From Holophagales bacterium UBA2201 (GTDB taxonomy: Bacteria > Acidobacteriota > Thermoanaerobaculia > UBA2201), in contig DCUZ01000016.1 of NCBI GenBank assembly GCA_002327305.1, positions 7,873 to 71,872 on the forward strand: a DNA stretch of 64,000 nt. The letters are read 5' to 3'. The notes below the pieces were generated by a model. That model saw only the letters and a program-made list of their open reading frames with translations. It ran no database searches and had not been told where the DNA came from. This document shows, one piece after another, positions 1-9,075 of this stretch; position 1 is the stretch's first letter, and each line of letters begins with the position of its first letter. Both the position numbers and the translations under genes were made by a program.

Positions 1-485
1 GCTTCCAGTTCGTGGGCGTGCTTTTGGATGGAAAAGATGGTCATCAATGCGCCCAGGCCGTAGCCCAAGGTGGTGGACATGTCTTCTTTCAACAGAATCT
101 TGTCGAGCCAGCGGACGGATCGCCGGTGCTTATAGGGGCAAGCCCCTTTGGGATGCTCTTCGTAATAGTAGGCGCCCACTTCGCCCACCAGGTAGCGGCC
201 CTCGCCCAGCGGCGCAAGAACGCGGTCGCCCTCCTGCATCTCGAATCCGAACCGGTAGACCTGTCCCGCCTGCCCCGCCACCGACGCCACACTCGCCCCT
301 TCCGCCTTCAGTTCCTTCTTTATGTCTTTAAGTATTATTTCTTCTTTTCTTAATTCATAATTCTTAATTTTTAATTTGGAGGTGAGGTCGGGTATCTGGT
401 TCCACCCGATGGCAATGAAGCCTTCTTTGCGTGCTTCTTCAATGTATTTGGAACCTTCGCCGAGGCGGATCAGATAATAACTCAC
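1..485 (-). CDS. hypothetical protein, partial (N-terminus in window, C-terminus beyond position 1)
   Basis: The minus strand is open from a GTG at 485 (preceded by GGAGGGG 4 nt upstream) to the window edge with no stop. Translation starts VSYYLIRLGEGSKYIEEARKEGFIAIGWNQIPDL, then a Lys/Glu-rich linker, then ...GEGRYLVGEVGAYYYEEHPKG. It is absent from the ORF track because its stop lies outside the window. Family not recognised. Confidence 0.4.
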   Translation of the reverse strand, partial: MSYYLIRLGEGSKYIEEARKEGFIAIGWNQIPDLTSKLKIKNYELRKEEIILKDIKKELKAEGASVASVAGQAGQVYRFGFEMQEGDRVLAPLGEGRYLVGEVGAYYYEEHPKGACPYKHRRSVRWLDKILLKEDMSTTLGYGLGALMTIFSIQKHAHELE

Positions 486-561
486 TATCCCCTCCAGATA
501 TTAATCATTGACATGTGACTGCCAAAGGACATTCTATTATATTTGTTCTCGGCATTCCCAT

Positions 562-2223
562 TCATGCTTGTGCAAGATGCCATAATTCAAGGATAAATGT
601 CCTAGTCAGATTGAAATCGGAGGGCCTGAGTCCTTTTCGAACTACTTCATTGCATTTCTTCTTAAAACTCCCATAATTCTCTTTTTCAATTACTCCAACA
701 CCATCAGCGTCACGAGCTACTGTCACTCCTAACTTCTCCGCTTCGGAGATCATTCGATCAGAATAATGTCGTTCGATGCCTCGAAAGGACCGTCCTAGTT
801 TAGGATTAAAAGCACTATCAGGCCAAACACAGACTTTGCAGGGATCATGCTTTGAGAATAGCTTTTCGAATTGTGCTTTCTTGGATGCAACATCCCAGTC
901 TAATAGTATGATCACTGGAGATGCAATATTGCGTGCACGCAATGCTGATTTATTCGACTTTAAATATGCGTAAAGTGCATCAACTCCCCCCGCATCTTCT
1001 TCTTCATCCATCTGCGCGAGATATTGGATTCTAATGCATCGCTGTGGCTTAATCAGTGCAAGGGCTTCATTCAAATATGCAGCATCGAATTTCCCTTCTA
1101 CTAATATCAGCGGATCAAGAGGGCAAAATAGAAGAGGATGTGTCCATCTTGAGACACCTGCCGAGGCTGAAAGATCAATGATAGCCCGTTTGTCTCGCTC
1201 TGGATTCAAATTTGTACCGCTTGTTCCTTTCTCTAAGAATGCAGCAGAATCTGCATGTTGAATTATCATATCAGAGTGCGTGGTAGCGAATATCTGCAGG
1301 CGACCACCTTGTTCAGAAGCAATTTCAGAAAGGTACGATGCTAGATGAGCTTCTAAAGATGTATGCAAAGACGACTCCGGCTCTTCTGCAAGCCAGACAG
1401 CAGCTTGTCGCCAGCCAAATTGTTGGAAATAGTCACGGTCAATCAGCGCCAATGTTTCAAACATAAGTAGGCTTTGGATACCAGACCCTTGAAATATATC
1501 GTCGACATCTATACCGAGGTCCTTAAGCCTGTATCCTAGCGCGAAAACAATGTTAGCCCAGTTGTCCGGAGTTTTTAATTGAACTCCCTCAATCCCTGGG
1601 CAGAGATCCTTTACATGCTTTGACATTGGCTCCAGTAATGTATTTGACGTTTCTTCAATTGCTCCAAACAATTCAGTCGGTCTTGGTGCTTTCTTTCCAA
1701 GGCGTCTGACAAGTGCGTCGCGAAGGGCGCTGTGCTGCTGTTGGATAACATCTATTGGAAGAACCCTGTTGGGCACATAACGGATTGGGATAAGTGATAA
1801 GAATTGTTCAATACGCTGAGAATTTTCATAGTCTAAAGGCTTAGTGCTATTATTAATATAATATTGGGTATTTATAGAAGCACGCTCCCATACCTTTGTG
1901 ATAGTGGTCCCGCTTGCAATAAGATGCTTTACCTCCTCCAGGCCCTTCCGAAAAGAGAAATTTCCCGGGATATTAAACTTGACGGAAACAGAAATCTGCT
2001 TCTTCCTATGCTTCTTTGCATGGGGGAGGTGAAAATCCCGGTCTATTTCAAGGGGAATGCCCGGCTCACAGTTATCTGTAAAATACGCATAGATCGCACG
2101 CAATACGTTCGACTTGCCTGAATTATTCAGCCCACATAAAACATTGAAGTTCCCGAATTCATTTAACTCCAGATCAGCAATTGATCGGAATCCTTTAATG
2201 CGTGCAGCGCTTATCAATTCCAT
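562..2223 (-). CDS. OLD-family ATP-dependent endonuclease (ABC ATPase + Toprim)
   Basis: N-terminal Walker A GLNNSGKSNVL, Walker B-like AVWLAEEPE and an ATTHS H-loop. The C-terminal Toprim region has LILVEGKFDAAYL and LLDWD motifs. The gene is AT-rich relative to the backbone. Confidence 0.75.
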   Translation of the reverse strand: MELISAARIKGFRSIADLELNEFGNFNVLCGLNNSGKSNVLRAIYAYFTDNCEPGIPLEIDRDFHLPHAKKHRKKQISVSVKFNIPGNFSFRKGLEEVKHLIASGTTITKVWERASINTQYYINNSTKPLDYENSQRIEQFLSLIPIRYVPNRVLPIDVIQQQHSALRDALVRRLGKKAPRPTELFGAIEETSNTLLEPMSKHVKDLCPGIEGVQLKTPDNWANIVFALGYRLKDLGIDVDDIFQGSGIQSLLMFETLALIDRDYFQQFGWRQAAVWLAEEPESSLHTSLEAHLASYLSEIASEQGGRLQIFATTHSDMIIQHADSAAFLEKGTSGTNLNPERDKRAIIDLSASAGVSRWTHPLLFCPLDPLILVEGKFDAAYLNEALALIKPQRCIRIQYLAQMDEEEDAGGVDALYAYLKSNKSALRARNIASPVIILLDWDVASKKAQFEKLFSKHDPCKVCVWPDSAFNPKLGRSFRGIERHYSDRMISEAEKLGVTVARDADGVGVIEKENYGSFKKKCNEVVRKGLRPSDFNLTRTFILELWHLAQA

Positions 2224-2348
2224 TCTTATCCTCTTTTCACATAAAGAAAATACTGCTTCTGATATAAGACAAGCCGATTCTGTGCCCCTAACATTCTATG
2301 TAGCAGCAGACAAGATATTATTTAAGTGACAATTTTAAGACACTACGC

Positions 2349-4508
2349 TTATTCATGGCTTTTCCCCTCAACTATATATATCTCTTCATCATTCAGACCA
2401 TAGAGCTCATAGACCAACTTATCGATCTGCCGGTCGGTTGCGTCTATTTGGCGCTGAAACAGATTCTTTTGCTCCTCCAACTTTGCGGCCGATATTTTCT
2501 TATGCAAGGTGAGCATAGTACCTACCAAATCTACTATCTGCCCATGCCGCACCTTATCATCATTATTTGTAAAATCAATGATTCGAACAGGCACTTTTTC
2601 CATGTACTGGTAGATCAAACGATATCGGTACTGCCCAGCACGAACGCCGAATGGAATGCTGATATTGCTAATTGCAAACCAGAAGAGTTTACTGTTAAGC
2701 AACCCCAGAAGATACGGATCATTTACCCCAATGCAATAAGCGGTATTGGATAGGTAATGCCCCTCCCTATCAAGGCAGAAGCGCGGCCCTTTGGCAATAT
2801 CTGGATAAATGATTTTTGCCTGATCAAAAACCTCCCAATAGGCCACATCATCTTGGATCTCATACCACTCATATCGGCCTGGTTTTCGTCCGCGCTTTGC
2901 GTTTTTATCGCGCTTGGGTGTCAGATCTTCTTTCCATTTTGAAAGATGCTCCATAATTGCAGGATAGTCCTTGATCCGTACACCACGCCGCGTGAAAATG
3001 AGCCATTGATCTGCTTCATGAAATACATATCGCCTGATATCTTCGCCGCCGAGCATCGGATGAATTAACTCCGCACTATTGGCATCCTTTCTAATGAGGT
3101 CAGTCCTTGTTTTGCTGTCGATAATGAAGGCTTCGTTAAGCCCTGTTTTAATTCCATAGCATATTTTATCTTTTGCAAAGTCGCAAAGAGGGATACCCGC
3201 CTTTGTTATCTTCTCGAATACATGGGCTTCATCATCGGATTTTAGCGACCAAGCATCTGGCTCCAATCTGACATGTGGGATAAAGTAATGATTGGCTTCG
3301 ACAAACGACTTTAAGTCTTGAATTTGCAGGGAAGGGATTCGGCTAACTTCCACGCTCTGGGGCTGTTCTGTTTTAACGAAAAGAGGAATGCATACATAAG
3401 TGTCTTTCGCGTTTTCAAACACGGCCAAGCCACCAAAGTCCACTATGCGAAGCACGCCTGCATGCTTTTTGATCTGACGACGTAGTGACTCACCATAGGT
3501 AGCCCGCAAGAAACTGCTTGAAACAATGATGCTGAAACGACCATTAGCGCGGAGGAGATCAAGGCCCCGTTCTATAAAATATGCGTAGAGGTCTGCCACC
3601 CCATGATAAGCTTCGTACTGCTTGGAGAAATAGTCTTTGAATTCTGATAGAGTTTCCTGTCTGACATAAGGCGGATTCCCGATCACCACATCAAACCCGC
3701 CGCCCTTCATGATCGCCGGGAACTCCCGATCCCAATCGAAGGCGTTGATCCGCTTCCGGTCCTCGTCCGAAAACATGTCCAGTTGCCTGCCCTGGTAGAA
3801 GTCCTGCCCGATGAGCGAATTCCCGCACTTTATATTGGCCGTGAGATCGGGGAGGACAAGCCCCCTCATATAAAGCATCATCTGCCCCTTGTCGAATCCC
3901 TTGTCCAATAGTTTAAGGTAGAGCGACATGATGGCCACTTCGGTGGCCTCGCGGTCGATGTCCACACCGAAGAGGTTGTTCTTGAGGATCCTCCCCTTCT
4001 TCTCCACGGTGAGGCGGACGTCGCCCTCGGCGGTCTGGTACCAGTCGCGGGCGTGGGCCTTGTCCTTTTTGTGCTCCGCGTACCACTCTTCATGGTATCG
4101 GATGAGCCGATCGAAGGCGCCCAGGAGGAAGGAGCCGGAACCGCACGCCGGATCGAGGATCTTGAGGGTTTCGATCTCCGCGGGGGTCTTGCCCTTGATC
4201 TTTTCGCCCACGGTGTGCTCGACTATGTAATCCACCACCCACTGCGGGGTGTAATAGACGCCGCCGGCGTGGCGGACCTCGGGCTTTTCCTCCACCTTGG
4301 CGCGGTGGCCCTCGGTCAACCAGATCTTGGAGCCCAGGAACCGCTCGTAGATGCGGCCCAGGATCTCCGGCTCGATGATGTCGAACTGGTAGGGGCTGGC
4401 TGGAGCCACCTCCCGCCCTGCCGAAGGATGAAGTATGAAGGAAAAATTATGAAGGAGGGGCAGAAGGGGGACAGGGGTGGGACGAGAAAAAGCTTCAAGA
4501 TAGGTCAT
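2349..4508 (-). CDS. Type IIG restriction-modification enzyme, C-terminal fragment (gamma-class N6-adenine MTase + target-recognition region); nuclease/helical N-terminal part missing
   Basis: The fragment aligns to residues ~310-994 of the intact paralog at 21694-24678 (YERFLG, AKVEEKPEV, YYTPQWVVDYIVEHTVG, LDPACGSGSFLLGAF, VIGNPPYVRQE). The first ~35 codons (4395-4508) show no homology to the paralog. It overlaps the 3' end of the four-helix-bundle gene by 14 nt. Confidence 0.7.
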   Translation of the reverse strand: MTYLEAFSRPTPVPLLPLLHNFSFILHPSAGREVAPASPYQFDIIEPEILGRIYERFLGSKIWLTEGHRAKVEEKPEVRHAGGVYYTPQWVVDYIVEHTVGEKIKGKTPAEIETLKILDPACGSGSFLLGAFDRLIRYHEEWYAEHKKDKAHARDWYQTAEGDVRLTVEKKGRILKNNLFGVDIDREATEVAIMSLYLKLLDKGFDKGQMMLYMRGLVLPDLTANIKCGNSLIGQDFYQGRQLDMFSDEDRKRINAFDWDREFPAIMKGGGFDVVIGNPPYVRQETLSEFKDYFSKQYEAYHGVADLYAYFIERGLDLLRANGRFSIIVSSSFLRATYGESLRRQIKKHAGVLRIVDFGGLAVFENAKDTYVCIPLFVKTEQPQSVEVSRIPSLQIQDLKSFVEANHYFIPHVRLEPDAWSLKSDDEAHVFEKITKAGIPLCDFAKDKICYGIKTGLNEAFIIDSKTRTDLIRKDANSAELIHPMLGGEDIRRYVFHEADQWLIFTRRGVRIKDYPAIMEHLSKWKEDLTPKRDKNAKRGRKPGRYEWYEIQDDVAYWEVFDQAKIIYPDIAKGPRFCLDREGHYLSNTAYCIGVNDPYLLGLLNSKLFWFAISNISIPFGVRAGQYRYRLIYQYMEKVPVRIIDFTNNDDKVRHGQIVDLVGTMLTLHKKISAAKLEEQKNLFQRQIDATDRQIDKLVYELYGLNDEEIYIVEGKSHE

Positions 4509-4875
4509 TTTGGGCCTTCACCTTCTTGATTATAGTAGCAAAGATGGCCGTAAGCTCATCGCATTCCTTCATTAGAGGCTTAAGTGTGTCTACGGGGTGG
4601 ATTCCGCTATCGCGTAAAAGTTCCAACCAATAGGCCGTTTCTTCAAGTTCTTTAAGGCTATCGCCCACCTTGGCCGAGAATTCGGCCTTGCTCCGGCTCC
4701 GATAGGCTTCGCGATAATTGGCTCCGATGGAAGTCCCTGATCGAAGGACCTGCTTTCCGATCATCCGCGCTTCAGGGCTTTTAGGTAGCCCGCTCGACAG
4801 GCGGATGATCTGGAGAGCGAAGCCCTTCGTCCTATCCCTCAAATCCTTCCCTTCGGCCCTGACTTCATCCCTCAT
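4495..4875 (-). CDS. four helix bundle protein (23S rRNA intervening-sequence protein family, TIGR02436-like)
   Basis: 126 aa with the family pattern DLRDRTKGFALQIIRL...LPKSPEARMIGKQVLRSGTSIGANYREAYRSRSKAEFSAKVGDSLKELEETAYWLELL. Its ATG overlaps the stop of the upstream fragment (ATGA). Confidence 0.8.
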   Translation of the reverse strand: MRDEVRAEGKDLRDRTKGFALQIIRLSSGLPKSPEARMIGKQVLRSGTSIGANYREAYRSRSKAEFSAKVGDSLKELEETAYWLELLRDSGIHPVDTLKPLMKECDELTAIFATIIKKVKAQNDLS

Positions 4876-5225
4876 ACTTCTGCCTTCATCCTTTTAGTGA
4901 GCGTGAAGACGGGCCGCTTGTCCGTGAGGGGCACATGGGGGGCCTTGGCCTCCACGAAGAACCGGGGCTTGCGCCGGACGCGGAAGGCGTAGTCGGGCTT
5001 TTTGATGGTGTCGCGTTCCTTCTGGCTATACTCGCGGTGGACGTCCCATTCGTCGCGGGGGAGGTGGGTTTGCTCGAAGTCCCAGCCGAGGGCCTGGAAG
5101 AGGGGGTCTATGAAGCGGTTTCTTGTTTCCGTTTCTTGGAAGGCTTTGGTTAGGTAGTGGGGTTCGTTTTTGTGGAAGTCTTCCACCTTTTGTTCGACGA
5201 GGGATTTGCCTTGGGAACGTTTCAT
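4872..5225 (-). pseudogene. N-terminal PD-(D/E)XK nuclease-domain fragment of a Type IIG R-M enzyme (truncated after the catalytic EAK motif)
   Basis: The 117-aa product is homologous to residues 1-~110 of the 994-aa paralog (FIDPLFQALGWDF, PDYAFRV..RFFVEAKAP versus FLDPFFKALGWDV, PDYCFRIGGVRKFFVEAKKP). It diverges and stops right after the EAK motif. It is in the same frame class as the C-terminal fragment. Confidence 0.65.
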
Positions 5226-5619
5226 GCCGCCACCCTACCAGCGGGCGACCCACCGGGTCGCCCCTACCAATACCCGCCGGCCACCTGCCTGGAGGGATTG
5301 CATCCCTCGCCTGCTTTCCTGCCGGCAAACCATCTGAACGCCATTACTGCTGATCGATACGGCCACTAATACCCCCTAAACCCTTTGAATGGCCCGAAAC
5401 ACTGGATAGGACTATACTCCCTTGAATGGGGCAGGGTCAAGGGCATGGCCGGGCTCCCGCGGCCGCTCAGTCCGGAAGGAATCGTTCAGATCTTTGTCTC
5501 CCGGGGCGTTGCCCCAAGCAGACGGTAAACCGGGCCTTGGGCCATCGAATAGTCAACGGCGGACAACGACCTGATTCCTTCAATGATATTGCAAAGGCAT
5601 GCGCTTTTACCAAGCGTGG

Positions 5620-6423
5620 CTAAGCGGCATGCGAAAGCCATGACACGATAAGAGATACGAGATGATCAGCGGCTTGCAGGCGGGCAGGCCATATGGAGAT
5701 CGCCCCAAAGATAGCCGCCAGGGCAAGCGCGACAGCGTTGGCACGGAAGACAGGATCTATAAACGTACCCGGGGCGCCGGAACCGGAAGCAAGACTCGCG
5801 ACCGCCCATTCTTCCCAAAATACTGTAATAAGAAGGCTGATACCGAGCGCAATCCAGATATAAAGGACCTTGAGGAGCCAGTAGAGGACCAACTGATTGG
5901 ATCCCGCCGCGCCTTGGCCGAGCCAGAACACGAAAGCACTCGCGACGAGCAGGATCGTCATGATTGCCGCGAGCGCCGCCGTCGGGCATGCCCGAATCCG
6001 GCTGTTGACGGCGACAAGCCGGAGCCGTTTGGCCGGAAGCAGGGAAAGGCCCCATATCACCGGAATGAAAATCAGCCAAAGAACGGGGACGCCTCCGAGG
6101 GCGACCGCCACAACGATTCCAACCACTGTGGAAAGGACATTCGCCAAAAACATGTAGATGACGGCCAGCCATCGCTTGAGGCCGCGCTGCAACACAGCGA
6201 ACAGCAATGCCTTGATGAGGACGATGACGCAAAGCACCTGGAGCGATGGGACAAGCCAGGACGGACCGGCAACCACCTTCATGAGTGGAAATATCGGTTC
6301 GCAGCCCATCAGGGCGCCGGAGGGGCACAGGGCGAGCAAGAAAGCAATGCTGGCCACGAGCAATGATCGTTTCGAGAGGGTCATGCGGCGCCTCCTGTGG
6401 ATGTCTTCATTTTGTGCATTCAT
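5620..6423 (-). CDS. hypothetical polytopic membrane protein
   Basis: 267 aa with multiple hydrophobic helices and no recognisable catalytic motif. The start may be the internal M of MTLSKRS. Confidence 0.45.
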   Translation of the reverse strand: MNAQNEDIHRRRRMTLSKRSLLVASIAFLLALCPSGALMGCEPIFPLMKVVAGPSWLVPSLQVLCVIVLIKALLFAVLQRGLKRWLAVIYMFLANVLSTVVGIVVAVALGGVPVLWLIFIPVIWGLSLLPAKRLRLVAVNSRIRACPTAALAAIMTILLVASAFVFWLGQGAAGSNQLVLYWLLKVLYIWIALGISLLITVFWEEWAVASLASGSGAPGTFIDPVFRANAVALALAAIFGAISIWPARLQAADHLVSLIVSWLSHAA

Positions 6424-6607
6424 GGCTTCTCCTGCAACTGCACTGAATTCCAGGCGGCCGTGATCCAGACGACGCGGCCCTTCCCCGCTGGGTGTGCCGA
6501 AAGCCCTGGAAATGGACAGAAATCGGCAAAGCCTCCAAAATCATATTCCCATGCTTCCGCATCATCCGCATCCTTCCTTCGCTAATTCCCGCCTTTCCCG
6601 CGGACTT

Positions 6608-6907
6608 TTACCCTTTCACCCCGCGGCCCCGCCAATAGCGTGGCCGACGGTGAAGATGGGCTACCGCTACAATAACGAGGCTCTGTTCATCCCGGCCATA
6701 AATGAGGCCATACGGGAAGCGGGCGAGAAAACAGCGTCGCAATTCAGGACCGATTTCGCTTCCGGAAGATGGGTAGACACTGATTCTTCGGACCGCCCGG
6801 TCCAACTCATCAAGGAATTCCATCCCCAATCCCGGCACCTGTACCTCGTACCATGCTACGGCATCGTCCAGTTCGCGTCGGGCGCGAATGGTGAACCTTA
6901 CGGTCAT
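6608..6907 (-). CDS. ParE/RelE-family type II toxin
   Basis: 99 aa with the ParE-like N-terminus MTVRFTIRARRELDDAVAWY, overlapping the upstream antitoxin by 4 nt. Confidence 0.75.
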   Translation of the reverse strand: MTVRFTIRARRELDDAVAWYEVQVPGLGMEFLDELDRAVRRISVYPSSGSEIGPELRRCFLARFPYGLIYGRDEQSLVIVAVAHLHRRPRYWRGRGVKG

Positions 6908-7126
6908 GACCTGCTGTACTTTTCCATGACGGCCCGATAGGACACGGTTTTAAGGCGGCCCGCCTTGTAGGCCTTCCACCGGCGATGCGCTTCCTGTGCC
7001 CAGGCACGGTCAATTTCCGGATCCGGCTGGTCAAGATCGGCCAGGATTGAATCCACCAGTTGAAGTTTTTCCATATCCGACAGGGATCGGATTTGTATGG
7101 CGAGTTTTTCCGCTTTGGCGCTCATA
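6904..7126 (-). CDS. type II antitoxin (putative addiction module component, ParD-like/CHP02574-like)
   Basis: MSAKAEKLAIQIRSLSDMEKLQLVDSILADLDQPDPEIDRAWAQEAHRRWKAYKAGRL. The start is placed at the internal ATG preceded by GGAGGTG; the longer track ORF is an N-terminal over-extension. Confidence 0.7.
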
Positions 7127-7330
7127 ATACGCACCTCCTGTGTTCGATTATAGTGTAGCACAGTGGTTTTCCACTCCCTCGTCACCGGCTCGTCGTTCGT
7201 CTTCCGCCCCGAGTCCGTTGGAAAAGCGAATCGGAGGGATTTGCCGAAAGCGAACGCCGGCTCGAAGAAGTCATCCCAGGAGCGGGACGCGCGGATGAAG
7301 CGGTCAACGGCGGTCGGGGGCATGGGGGGC

Positions 7331-7699
7331 TCATTCGGCCGCGAGGTTCCGGATGTAGTGGTTCAACTCCCTGGCCTTGCCGTCGAAGAACAGGGTGACG
7401 CAGGCCAGCACTTTCAACATCGACTGGACGCCGTCGGCCCTGGCCTCCGCGTCCGGTTGCCAGACGGCGTACCGGCCGGGGGCTTCGCTCCGGACCGCCA
7501 GATACCGCCGCGTCATGCTGTCATGGAAGATGATCGTCGGGGCCACCAGGGAGGGGTCCCGCTCCCGCTTGGCCAGCTCCCTCTTGAACGGGAAGGTCTT
7601 CACGAAGGAGAGGGCCGCGCTTTTTTCTATGGCCCCCATCTTCACCACATCGTCCGGCGACGAGGTGTCGAACAGAATCTTGTAGGTGAACCGGCTCAC
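7331..7699 (-). CDS. hypothetical protein
   Basis: 122-aa ORF in a plausible gap with no recognisable motifs. Confidence 0.35.
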   Translation of the reverse strand: MSRFTYKILFDTSSPDDVVKMGAIEKSAALSFVKTFPFKRELAKRERDPSLVAPTIIFHDSMTRRYLAVRSEAPGRYAVWQPDAEARADGVQSMLKVLACVTLFFDGKARELNHYIRNLAAE

Positions 7700-8004
7700 G
7701 GGCGCCCTCCGCCCCCCGCTCGCCGGCCTTTTCCAGGGCCGTTGCCGGGCGCCACTCGATTCCTCCGTGCCGGCGGGTCGGGGCCGCGCATTCCGCCACT
7801 ATACTCCCGCCTGGGAGAGGGGGTCAAGGGGGGGAGGAGGCCCCGCAAACGCATGCGCCGACCCGCACGCACGGGCGCTTGGGGCGTCCGCGGCAGGAAA
7901 GGACGCGGGGGGAACGGCCCGGCCCGGAAGGATGGACCCGGATCAAGCCGGCCGGGGATGCGAAGGGGCGGCTCCGCTCGGCGGAAGACGGCCCCACCGT
8001 CCCC

Positions 8005-9075
8005 TCACAGCTTCAGCGTCACCGCCAGGGTGGATTTGATGCGGGCGCCGGAGTCGGAGAAGAAATCCTCGCGCACATCGTGGAGGTAGCGCCCCAGGCC
8101 CGCCTCCACCTCGAGGTCCCGGCCGAGGGAGCGCCTCAGGCGCAGGGCGACGAAGTTCGTCGCGGCCTCGGTGAGGACGCGGGGATCGAAGAGGAGGTAG
8201 GAGCGCTCCAGCCGCCGGTCCTCGAACCGGAAGGAAAGGAGGAGGGTCCATCCCGGAGCGGGGGCGGCGGAGAGGGTGCCTTCGATCCCCCACCCCGTGT
8301 GCCCGAAGTCGGGGATGGATGAATCGGTCTCCTGGTAGAACAGCGCCGCCTGGACCAAAAACGGCCCCGCGACCTCCCACCCCAGGGAGACGAGGCGGAG
8401 GGTGTCGCGGTGGTCGCGGAACGAGGGGGGGGTGGGGGGCCCGCCGGAACCGCCCCCCGCGGGGATGACCAGAACGGGCTGGTCGAAATCCTGCACGGCG
8501 TAGGCGGCGGTGGCGCGAAGGCGGTGCCGCCCCCCCAGGGGCTGATCGGCCGCGAGGGAGGCGCGGGTCTGCCGGTGGGAAAAGACGGTGCGGTCCTGCA
8601 CCTCCAGGTCGCTCCAGTCGAGGGCGAGGCGGAGGCGGTCGTGCCACCGCAGGGCCGCCTCGGCGCCGAAGCGGGTGTAGGGGTCCTCCTCCACGGGGAA
8701 CCGCTCCTCCCTCCCCTGGGCGTCGCGGAACTGGTAGCGGGCGGAGCCGTCCAGCACCAGGCCGGCCCCCAGGGCTGCCCCGGCGCGGTATTCGAGGCCG
8801 CCGTAGAGCATCCGCGCGGGAGGGGGATCGGCGGACGAGCCCCCCCAGGGGTCCAGGACCGTGAAGTGGTAGGCGACGCTCTGCCGCGCCTTCGAGTACC
8901 CCCCCCCGACCCGCAGGGCCGAGAAGACGGCGCCGGCGTCGCCGGGTTCGAATTCATAGAGACGGGAATGGTGTTCGAGGCCGAGAGAGAACCGGCTCTC
9001 GCCCGCCCATTCCTCCGCCCCCCAGGCGCCGGCGGCCCAGAGGATGGCGCACAGGAGCGCGGTCAGACGGGTCAT
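8005..9075 (-). CDS. putative outer-membrane beta-barrel protein
   Basis: Signal peptide MTRLTALLCAILWAAGAWG followed by alternating amphipathic beta-strand-like sequence (start trimmed to this Met). Family unknown. Confidence 0.45.
   Translation of the reverse strand: MTRLTALLCAILWAAGAWGAEEWAGESRFSLGLEHHSRLYEFEPGDAGAVFSALRVGGGYSKARQSVAYHFTVLDPWGGSSADPPPARMLYGGLEYRAGAALGAGLVLDGSARYQFRDAQGREERFPVEEDPYTRFGAEAALRWHDRLRLALDWSDLEVQDRTVFSHRQTRASLAADQPLGGRHRLRATAAYAVQDFDQPVLVIPAGGGSGGPPTPPSFRDHRDTLRLVSLGWEVAGPFLVQAALFYQETDSSIPDFGHTGWGIEGTLSAAPAPGWTLLLSFRFEDRRLERSYLLFDPRVLTEAATNFVALRLRRSLGRDLEVEAGLGRYLHDVREDFFSDSGARIKSTLAVTLKL

Follow-up and report, generated by a model that had tools for sequence, protein, structure and literature searches.

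The window analysed here, a stretch of 64,000 nucleotides (nt) of Holophagales bacterium UBA2201 (contig DCUZ01000016.1, positions 7,873 to 71,872), carries close to its left edge a gene for a protein of the OLD family, in which an ABC ATPase and a C-terminal Toprim nuclease domain are joined in a single polypeptide of 553 amino acids (aa). The gene lies between two genes of restriction type, one for the methyltransferase and specificity part of a type IIG enzyme and one for an Mrr-type nuclease (Table 1), which agrees with the defence-island setting proposed in a preliminary description of this DNA. We consider it probable (about 0.7) that the gene encodes a functional-looking single-polypeptide OLD enzyme, an ABC ATPase controlling a two-metal Toprim nuclease, and that it is cargo in an exchanged low-GC cassette of ~3.2 kb together with the specificity part of the methyltransferase.

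Table 1 Features of the OLD-type locus (window coordinates)
Feature	Position	Strand	Basis
Mrr-type nuclease gene, first 161 of 472 codons; remainder beyond left window edge	1..485	-	
Spacer between OLD stop and Mrr GTG start, 76 nt, with GGAGG ribosome-binding site	486..561	-	sequence
Low-GC exchangeable cassette	495..3660	.	switch in GC and GC3; sister locus L171; transition zone 3660-3830
OLD-family gene, intact, 553 aa	562..2223	-	open reading frame; Pfam AAA_15; family alignment; PDB profile; Foldseek
Toprim core of the OLD-type protein, residues ~365-500	724..1131	-	invariant columns; GajA alignment; TsOLD spacing
Spacer between methyltransferase stop and OLD start, 125 nt, AT-rich, with GAGG ribosome-binding site	2224..2348	-	sequence
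Type IIG N6-adenine methyltransferase and TaqI_C specificity part, 719 aa	2349..4508	-	Pfam, PADLOC, L091 alignment
Four-helix-bundle gene	4495-4875	-	Pfam 23S_rRNA_IVP 4e-21; TIGR02436 1.7e-27
Type IIG N-terminal nuclease fragment, 117 aa	4872-5225	-	PADLOC profile positions 3-111; L091 residues 3-113

The OLD-type protein, in which the strings GLNNSGKSNVL, ATTHS, LILVEGKFDAAYL and LLDWD are found, is composed of an ABC ATPase (residues ~1-335, including a helical insert at ~150-300), a Toprim domain (~365-500) and a helical tail of ~70 residues. In a family alignment of 24 relatives at 44-50% identity, the invariant ATPase residues are Walker A K36 (in GLNNSGKSN), a signature-like QGSGxQS, Walker B E279/E280/P281/E282 with H286 (in AEEPESSLH) and H-loop H315 (in TTHS). 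The invariant residues of the Toprim domain are E375, G376, D379, D441, D443, G481, E483, R484 and R489, arranged as E375-G-x-x-D379, D441-x-D443, G481-x-E483-R484 and R489, and two residues of the tail, K520 and D535, do not vary either. In TsOLD, the class 1 OLD nuclease of Thermus scotoductus, ATP hydrolysis is driven by K34, E276 and H310, and cleavage depends on metal A residues E377/D431/D433 and metal B residues D381/S478/E480, together with R487 (PMC7049728). In the window protein, this catalytic set recurs in unchanged order and at almost equal spacing, except for a glycine at the serine position. HMMER alignments pair EEPESSLH and TTHS with EEPEMYLH and THS of TsOLD, and LVEGKxD with LIEGPSE of GajA, so that E375 corresponds to GajA E379, while D379, E483, R484 and R489 match TsOLD D381, E480 and R487 by spacing. 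Thus, all ATPase residues and the E/DxD metal residues of the Toprim domain are present, and the OLD reading withstands the check for lost catalytic residues.

Comparisons at the level of profile and fold point in the same direction. The family profile, when searched against the PDB, matched TsOLD (6p74) first (1e-7) and GajA next (1.5e-6). For the AF2 model of the protein (pLDDT 79, pTM 0.70), the best Foldseek match was again TsOLD 6p74 (E=6e-13 over 609 columns, with 15% identity), followed by the Retron Eco8 OLD, GajA and Rad50/SMC heads. Pfam matches are located in the ATPase part only (AAA_15 4e-21, AAA_21, AAA_23, SMC_N), and the PADLOC models AriA (2.5e-23), NsnB, AriAB (1.1e-16), GajA (3.5e-16) and Old (4e-14) match the ATPase partially; in NCBIfam, nothing exceeded the cut-offs. 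The protein has the features that define the OLD family, in line with the architecture that the preliminary description had given for this reading frame, and its similarity to P2 Old and GajA is distant, resting on profile, fold and motifs rather than on close sequence identity.

A database search returned 483 relatives with a best identity of 50%, nearly all of them 550-560 aa long and labelled by several sources as 'ATP-dependent endonuclease of OLD family', and an exhaustive search of 1.84 billion representatives (clusters at 50% identity) gave 156 matches with E<=1e-30 and 316 with E<=1e-10. Judged by these searches, the relatives form a discrete, modest and uncharacterised clade, whose sources are mostly uncultured Acidobacteriota, Thermodesulfobacteriota, Planctomycetota, Bdellovibrionales and candidate phyla.

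Another important question is how the gene came to its present position. The GC content is 0.41-0.46 across window ~500-3500, compared with 0.52-0.62 in the flanks and ~0.70 in the host core, and the GC content at third codon positions (GC3) is 0.38 in the OLD gene versus ~0.9 in host genes. The shift falls within the methyltransferase reading frame, where GC3 drops from ~0.8-0.9 to ~0.45 near codon 300, and the other edge of the low-GC block lies at ~495-560, outside the Mrr gene proper. An exact look-up of the OLD protein retrieved 12 contigs from several metagenomes with identical gene order; these represent one population and not independent occurrences. One of them, metagenome contig L001, shares 12,223 bases with the window, all of them identical, and could therefore be used as its leftward extension. 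A sister version of the locus (L171 and L172) was found via P0121, a relative 95% identical to the Mrr-type protein of L001.

According to blastn, L171 3-651 corresponds to L001 7913-8561 at 88% (the 5' half of the methyltransferase gene) and L171 3138-4556 to L001 11731-13148 at 92% (the Mrr gene, beginning 8 nt before its start, with similarity resuming at window 493), and between these two anchors only a single matching patch of 60 nt is found, near the 3' end of the methyltransferase gene. The sliding identity between L171 and the window is 88-98% at 4311-3831, ~70% at 3831-3660, at background level from 3660 to ~507 and above 90% from ~450 leftwards; the two methyltransferase proteins are 47.5% identical overall. 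In L171, the position of the OLD gene is occupied by a gene (2016-3107) for a 363-aa protein with weak similarity to TIR and nucleoside 2-deoxyribosyltransferase domains. Because L171 shares both flanks and differs between them, in agreement with the GC3 drop, window ~495-3660 can be regarded as one exchangeable cassette, which comprises the 3' ~60% of the methyltransferase reading frame (the specificity part with TaqI_C), the OLD gene and both intergenic spacers. The comparison documents, at the sequence level, an exchange of this cassette relative to the sister locus, evidently by recombination between the methyltransferase core and the Mrr-type gene (~3.2 kb). The low GC content and the single, recently acquired block of the preliminary description are thereby both supported, the latter now with defined limits. 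The sister locus also provides a concrete example of defence-gene movement, in which cargo moves along with a methyltransferase's target-recognition part, flanked on either side by a conserved anchor for recombination. Direct or inverted repeats above chance level were absent from the flanks in window 1-9000, and no tRNA gene was found in L001. Distant relatives of the 363-aa protein (L030:2038-3120, L031:431-1537) occur in Bdellovibrionales type I loci that also harbor OLD homologues.

To characterize the gene neighbourhoods of the OLD homologues, neighbouring genes were clustered over 30 loci, and Pfam was run on the cluster representatives and 108 further neighbours. Methyltransferase, type I or SNF2+DUF1156+DUF499 (BREX-related) genes were located within 5 kb of the OLD gene in 16 of the 30 loci, and in ~10 loci the OLD gene is adjoined or overlapped by a restriction-type gene of the same orientation. 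In type I systems (L007, L029-L031, L036), HsdM/HsdS lie upstream and HsdR downstream; four loci (L010, L019, L021, L033) combine an SNF2 helicase, a DUF1156 methyltransferase and DUF499; N4/N6 methyltransferases occur near the homologue in L009, L037 and L038, and further N6 methyltransferases in L012, L022 and L024. The relatives of the window gene thus often sit in restriction-modification or BREX-related operons, typically just downstream of a methyltransferase or specificity gene. Earlier publications already describe ABC-Toprim genes placed within restriction-like operons: in PMC12839542, TOPRIM-linked OLD-ABC genes inside BREX and BREX-related operons of >1,200 taxa are read as backup effectors, and HEC-04, a fused ABC-TOPRIM gene embedded in Hma systems, protects against phage in a manner that requires Walker A and metal residues (bioRxiv 10.1101/2024.01.29.577857, Payne et al. 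preprint). Additional inserts were noted in the type I loci of Bdellovibrionales (L029:7732-9722, L030:7962-9149, L031:7736-8581): a Fic-domain gene comes after the OLD homologue, and a second, 395-aa ATPase paralogue also precedes HsdR in L029 and L030, so that one restriction operon contains several inserts.

The gene downstream of the OLD gene could not be placed in the preliminary description, and the leftward extension by L001 resolved this issue. In the window, its frame (485..<1) is open for 161 codons, starts with VSYYLIRLGEGSKYIEEARKEGFIAIGW and holds LGEGSKYI, LGEGRYLV and a Lys-rich stretch; the whole gene (L001:11739-13157) encodes 472 aa. Residues 3-321 match positions 4-319 of the 324 positions of the PADLOC model PDC-S02 (PDLC04806; 1.8e-76), a near full-length match to what PADLOC lists as a single-gene candidate, and the 161 window residues alone reach 4e-29. 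The PD-(D/E)xK core (Pfam Mrr_cat 2.6e-26, residues 187-302) lies outside the window, on L001, and in 23 relatives its residues D217, D221, Q239 and K241 never vary; precomputed annotation assigns DUF8426 to the N-terminal domain. The family gave 243 matches, mostly of 457-473 aa together with a two-domain form of ~320 aa, and relatives are labelled by their sources as 'Mrr-cat superfamily restriction endonuclease'. For the C-terminal domain (residues ~355-470), no Pfam or PADLOC family was found. This domain of ~120 residues (L001:12786-13154) is matched alone (query ~344-470) in many metagenome loci (L154-L170) and therefore appears to be separately mobile.

The structural model of P0121 was used for fold comparisons, and it matched MspJI/AspBHI and EVE/YTH-type folds, with many YTH domains (about 10-10.9), as well as VcaM4I, T. 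gammatolerans McrB-N, THYN1 and ASCH. The downstream gene is thus predicted to encode an Mrr-type nuclease in which one or more flanking domains have a PUA-like (EVE/YTH) fold, similar to readers of modified bases, and this predicted layout is that of modification-dependent restriction enzymes. It shares the Mrr_cat PD-(D/E)xK core with MspJI/AspBHI and E. coli Mrr, but differs from them in its additional C-terminal domain and in having DUF8426 instead of an SRA domain at the N-terminus.

Some details of the earlier description changed once the whole protein was available. The LGEG segment had been taken for an internal repeat; both strings belong to one domain and both are kept in homologues, and a comparison of the N- and C-domain profiles by hhalign gave a probability of 0.2%, so that an internal duplication was rejected and no relationship between the two flanking domains was detected. 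The Lys-rich stretch exists as described and represents a lineage-specific insertion of ~12 residues in the N-domain. The absence of a Walker A motif from the N-terminal part was confirmed for the 161 window residues. The insertion is encoded by an AT-rich patch (window 325-425, minus strand, GC 0.34-0.38) in the otherwise GC-rich Mrr gene; it is absent from homologues at 47-63% identity and present in P0121.

In three long contigs, the homologue of the Mrr-type protein abuts an Eco57I/MmeI-type N6-adenine methyltransferase or a type IIG enzyme, 11 of 26 loci contain a methyltransferase cluster, and among 98 neighbours from 23 loci we found nine N6_Mtase, three N6_N4_Mtase and two D12 matches. 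The closest recurring neighbours are type IIG enzymes resembling the split one of the window, an adjacency comparable to that of E. coli mrr, which adjoins hsd. Over its full length, the window methyltransferase is 36% identical to the type IIG enzyme beside an Mrr homologue in L091 and bears no more than a remote resemblance to the methyltransferases next to OLD homologues; it is thus closer to the methyltransferases of the Mrr loci, and the OLD gene therefore gives the impression of having been inserted between the methyltransferase gene and the Mrr gene. Immediately 3' of the Mrr-type gene, three small genes (L001:13157-14767) encode proteins of 145, 167 and 164 aa for which no family match was obtained. 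The first of them has its start at the final base of the Mrr stop codon, and in L099 a protein 42% identical to the 167-aa one is encoded ~1.1 kb downstream from the Mrr homologue.

Several observations weigh against the interpretation of the window gene as an embedded, two-metal OLD nuclease. By spacing, the metal-B serine of TsOLD, S478, is replaced here by glycine, G481. When the Toprim domain was searched alone, Pfam (E<=10) returned only Toprim at E=0.15, the PDB profile search returned noise and retron Ec67 at E ~1, and the PADLOC matches were weak (retron RT-Toprim_I-C 2.5e-4, PDC-M38B 0.012). A direct sequence assignment of this domain was consequently dropped, as no curated Toprim or OLD model matched significantly; the C-terminal domain is too divergent for these models, and its assignment is based on motifs and predicted fold. 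TM-scores to solved OLD nucleases are low (0.32-0.36; TsOLD 0.32-0.34), which for TsOLD is due to a different domain orientation, and the helical insert is modelled with low confidence. No close relative is found in phage or plasmid records: phages gave no match and plasmids only AAA ATPases of 21-26% identity on four plasmids, so a phage or plasmid origin of the gene was rejected. Finally, about half of the OLD homologues are surrounded by housekeeping genes, with no restriction genes within 5 kb. The embedding is therefore a tendency and not a rule, and it could merely reflect the clustering of genes in defence islands.

By analogy with P2 Old, TsOLD, GajA and HEC-04, the ATPase, probably dimeric via the helical insert, would control the two-metal Toprim nuclease. 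The protein may act alone, with no dedicated partner, as an ATP-regulated DNA nuclease in anti-phage defence, probably as a second-line or abortive effector, and the nuclease would be set free via the ATPase in response to a phage cue.

These considerations raise a key question: does the OLD-type protein act alone, or does it depend on its neighbours? If the two genes formed a system in which the OLD-type nuclease and the downstream protein cooperate as GajA and GajB do, their arrangement on the same strand with a 76-nt spacer would be expected, as would its identical recurrence on the 12 contigs. No terminator-like site was found between the OLD and Mrr genes, nor on the minus strand of the 2224-2348 spacer, and a promoter-like match at 525-498, in the spacer between the OLD and Mrr genes, was no better than chance; as both scans remained at the level of shuffled controls, they support no statement about an operon. 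The 12 contigs, belonging to one population, are no independent evidence. When the 80 genome loci collected for the OLD family were searched by tblastn with the Mrr-type protein, the gene was found only in the window's own contigs, apart from a distant Mrr_cat match 3.4 kb away in L020, so that none of the 29 other OLD-homologue loci has it alongside; conversely, the OLD protein found no match in the Mrr-family loci L087-L170. The sister locus retains the Mrr gene (92% nt identity) with another gene at the OLD position, and PDC-S02 itself is a single-gene candidate. A conserved pair was accordingly rejected on the OLD loci, the Mrr loci and L171, and the comparative data have largely refuted the two-gene system, to which we attach almost no credence. 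Neighbour clustering over the 30 loci also revealed no universal partner, the largest shared cluster covering at most 9 loci with heterogeneous methyltransferases, so the clade has no fixed partner gene and is class-1-like in this respect. The 'standalone' label of the preliminary description is therefore right as to the missing fixed partner, but about half of the relatives lie in or beside restriction-modification or BREX-related operons. The protein could also be a guard in the manner of PrrC or PARIS, held inactive by the adjacent methyltransferase/restriction proteins or monitoring them and firing once the restriction system is disabled by an anti-restriction protein of a phage (Ocr, Stp or ArdA type). 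Relatives are indeed situated between the M/S and R genes of type I loci (L036, L029-L031) and within loci of the SNF2+methyltransferase+DUF499 kind, with stop and start codons that frequently overlap; PrrC, with its ABC-like N-domain, is found at the corresponding place in EcoprrI, and an inhibitor of EcoprrI encoded by T4 activates it (PMC1484252 and PMC2610378); the best PADLOC match of the ATPase is AriA of PARIS; and 'backup effectors' have been proposed (10.1101/2024.01.29.577857 and PMC12839542). We nevertheless find a guard unlikely: with about half of the homologues lacking restriction neighbours, the protein cannot depend on a specific partner, the heterogeneity of the host systems (type I, type IIG, N4/N6 methyltransferases, BREX-related) opposes a specific protein-protein interface, and the flanking type IIG enzyme of the window has lost part of its nuclease region. 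Rather doubtful, too, is the further idea that the specificity half of the methyltransferase and the OLD-type 'backup' nuclease form one module wired to the restriction pair as a PARIS-/PrrC-like guard that would sense the pair's inhibition by anti-restriction proteins of phages, with the slot serving as a docking site for swapped guards, OLD-type here and TIR/deoxyribosyltransferase-like in L171.

It is quite improbable that the protein is a fused AriA-AriB variant of PARIS, which would cut host tRNA rather than DNA and abort infection by halting translation. PARIS is a pair of OLD-type ABC and Toprim proteins in which AriB, with a Toprim of the DUF4435 type, cleaves host tRNAs (PMC12839542 and PMC11464382), and in addition to the AriA match, the AriAB match extends from Walker B to the beginning of the Toprim domain (residues 273-396). 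The AriA match, however, spans the ATPase only in part, a search with the C-terminal domain alone yielded neither AriB nor AriAB, even with a limit of E<=10, the nearest matches being the retron and PDC-M38B models mentioned above, and the best 50 Foldseek matches include TsOLD, Eco8 OLD and GajA but no PARIS chain. Least in need of a defence role would be a decaying or non-defence passenger, either a DNA-repair-type ABC ATPase or a recent transfer without a role in the host. The GC3 of the gene marks it as foreign and not ameliorated, and weak matches to RecF and SMC heads exist, but this likeness is confined to the shared ABC head, the frame is full-length with all family-conserved catalytic residues and its own ribosome-binding site, and the context consists exclusively of defence genes; we regard a passenger as highly improbable. 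A single-polypeptide OLD nuclease carried in an exchangeable cassette is consequently the reading that we prefer.

Among known systems, such a nuclease is closest to class 1 OLD proteins (TsOLD, PDB 6p74; P2 Old). Like them, the window protein is a single polypeptide (553 vs 528 aa) with a helical insert in the ABC ATPase plus a Toprim domain at the C-terminus, its gene has no UvrD or retron partner, and TsOLD is its best profile and fold match, with catalytic residues in corresponding order and spacing. Differences are the distance in sequence (phmmer E=1.6e-4) and the helical tail with its invariant K520 and D535. According to PMC10568477, class 1 genes are isolated, with no other defence genes in their proximity, which does not apply to the present clade, with restriction-type genes nearby in 16 of 30 loci, often abutting, nor to the window gene itself between its type IIG and Mrr-type neighbours. 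In HEC-04 and the embedded ABC-TOPRIM genes, the same fused single gene is nested in a multi-gene system of methylation or restriction type, and the SNF2 + N6-methyltransferase + DUF499 loci of the relatives resemble the 'Type-1 BR' systems of PMC12839542; in contrast, the host system of the window is a type IIG methyltransferase with an Mrr-type nuclease, not Hma or BREX, and HEC-04 is not among the best 25 of the 99 PADLOC matches.

Gabija GajA (class 2 OLD) has the same ABC ATPase and Toprim architecture, a profile alignment from Walker B through the Toprim glutamate and a fold match, but its PADLOC model matches only partially (3.5e-16 at best), and no UvrD-like helicase (GajB) occurs in the window or beside the homologues in the 29 other loci, as the preliminary description had anticipated for the window. 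As to class 3 OLD (retron effectors), the flanking reading frames contain no reverse transcriptase domain, and an Rfam scan of window 1-7500 gave no match above noise for a retron or any other RNA. From PARIS, the protein differs in its Toprim part, which the AriB and AriAB models do not recognize, and resembles it in the ATPase. PrrC and RloC likewise combine an ABC-type N-terminal NTPase with a C-terminal nuclease and have their genes between modification/specificity and restriction genes; the nuclease domain of the window protein is Toprim, not the ribonuclease domain of PrrC or RloC.

The window locus is thus an unremarkable representative of a known type of anti-phage island and leaves current concepts unchanged, its novelty being reduced because the ABC-Toprim architecture and its embedding had been described before. 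Compared with the preliminary description, the sequence and structure searches with both proteins, which returned TsOLD for one and PDC-S02/Mrr_cat with reader-like folds for the other, and the locus comparisons add the identity of the downstream gene, the rejection of a two-gene system and direct evidence of cassette exchange. A further addition is a clade of OLD-type nucleases that is well defined and as yet uncharacterised. PMC10568477 lists as an open question whether an OLD protein of class 1, encoded by one gene, confers broad anti-phage defence by itself, and this clade is a candidate for testing it.

The type IIG enzyme upstream of the OLD gene is split. Its 719-aa part matches Pfam Eco57I (2e-43), N6_Mtase and TaqI_C (residues 483-640) and positions 311-1003 of the 1011 positions of the PADLOC model REase_MTase_IIG (1e-128), and it corresponds to residues 288-962 of the intact 968-aa relative in L091. 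About 175 residues (~114-287 of that relative) are missing, and in their place lies the four-helix-bundle gene (23S rRNA IVS protein / TIGR02436), which overlaps both neighbours and interrupts the type IIG gene. The N-terminal nuclease fragment still has PD...EAK.

Farther upstream, a predicted multi-pass membrane protein of 267 aa (window 5620-6423, minus strand) without a family match is encoded between the restriction genes and a toxin-antitoxin pair (6608-7323, minus strand), whose toxin is of the ParE type (99 aa) and whose antitoxin is of the 'Unstab_antitox' type (139 aa) and which is situated at the GC boundary of the island. To the left of the window, a second low-GC patch (L001:17908-19755, GC ~0.47) contains a 615-aa reading frame with only a marginal TIG-domain match, which suggests another independently acquired piece of the island.

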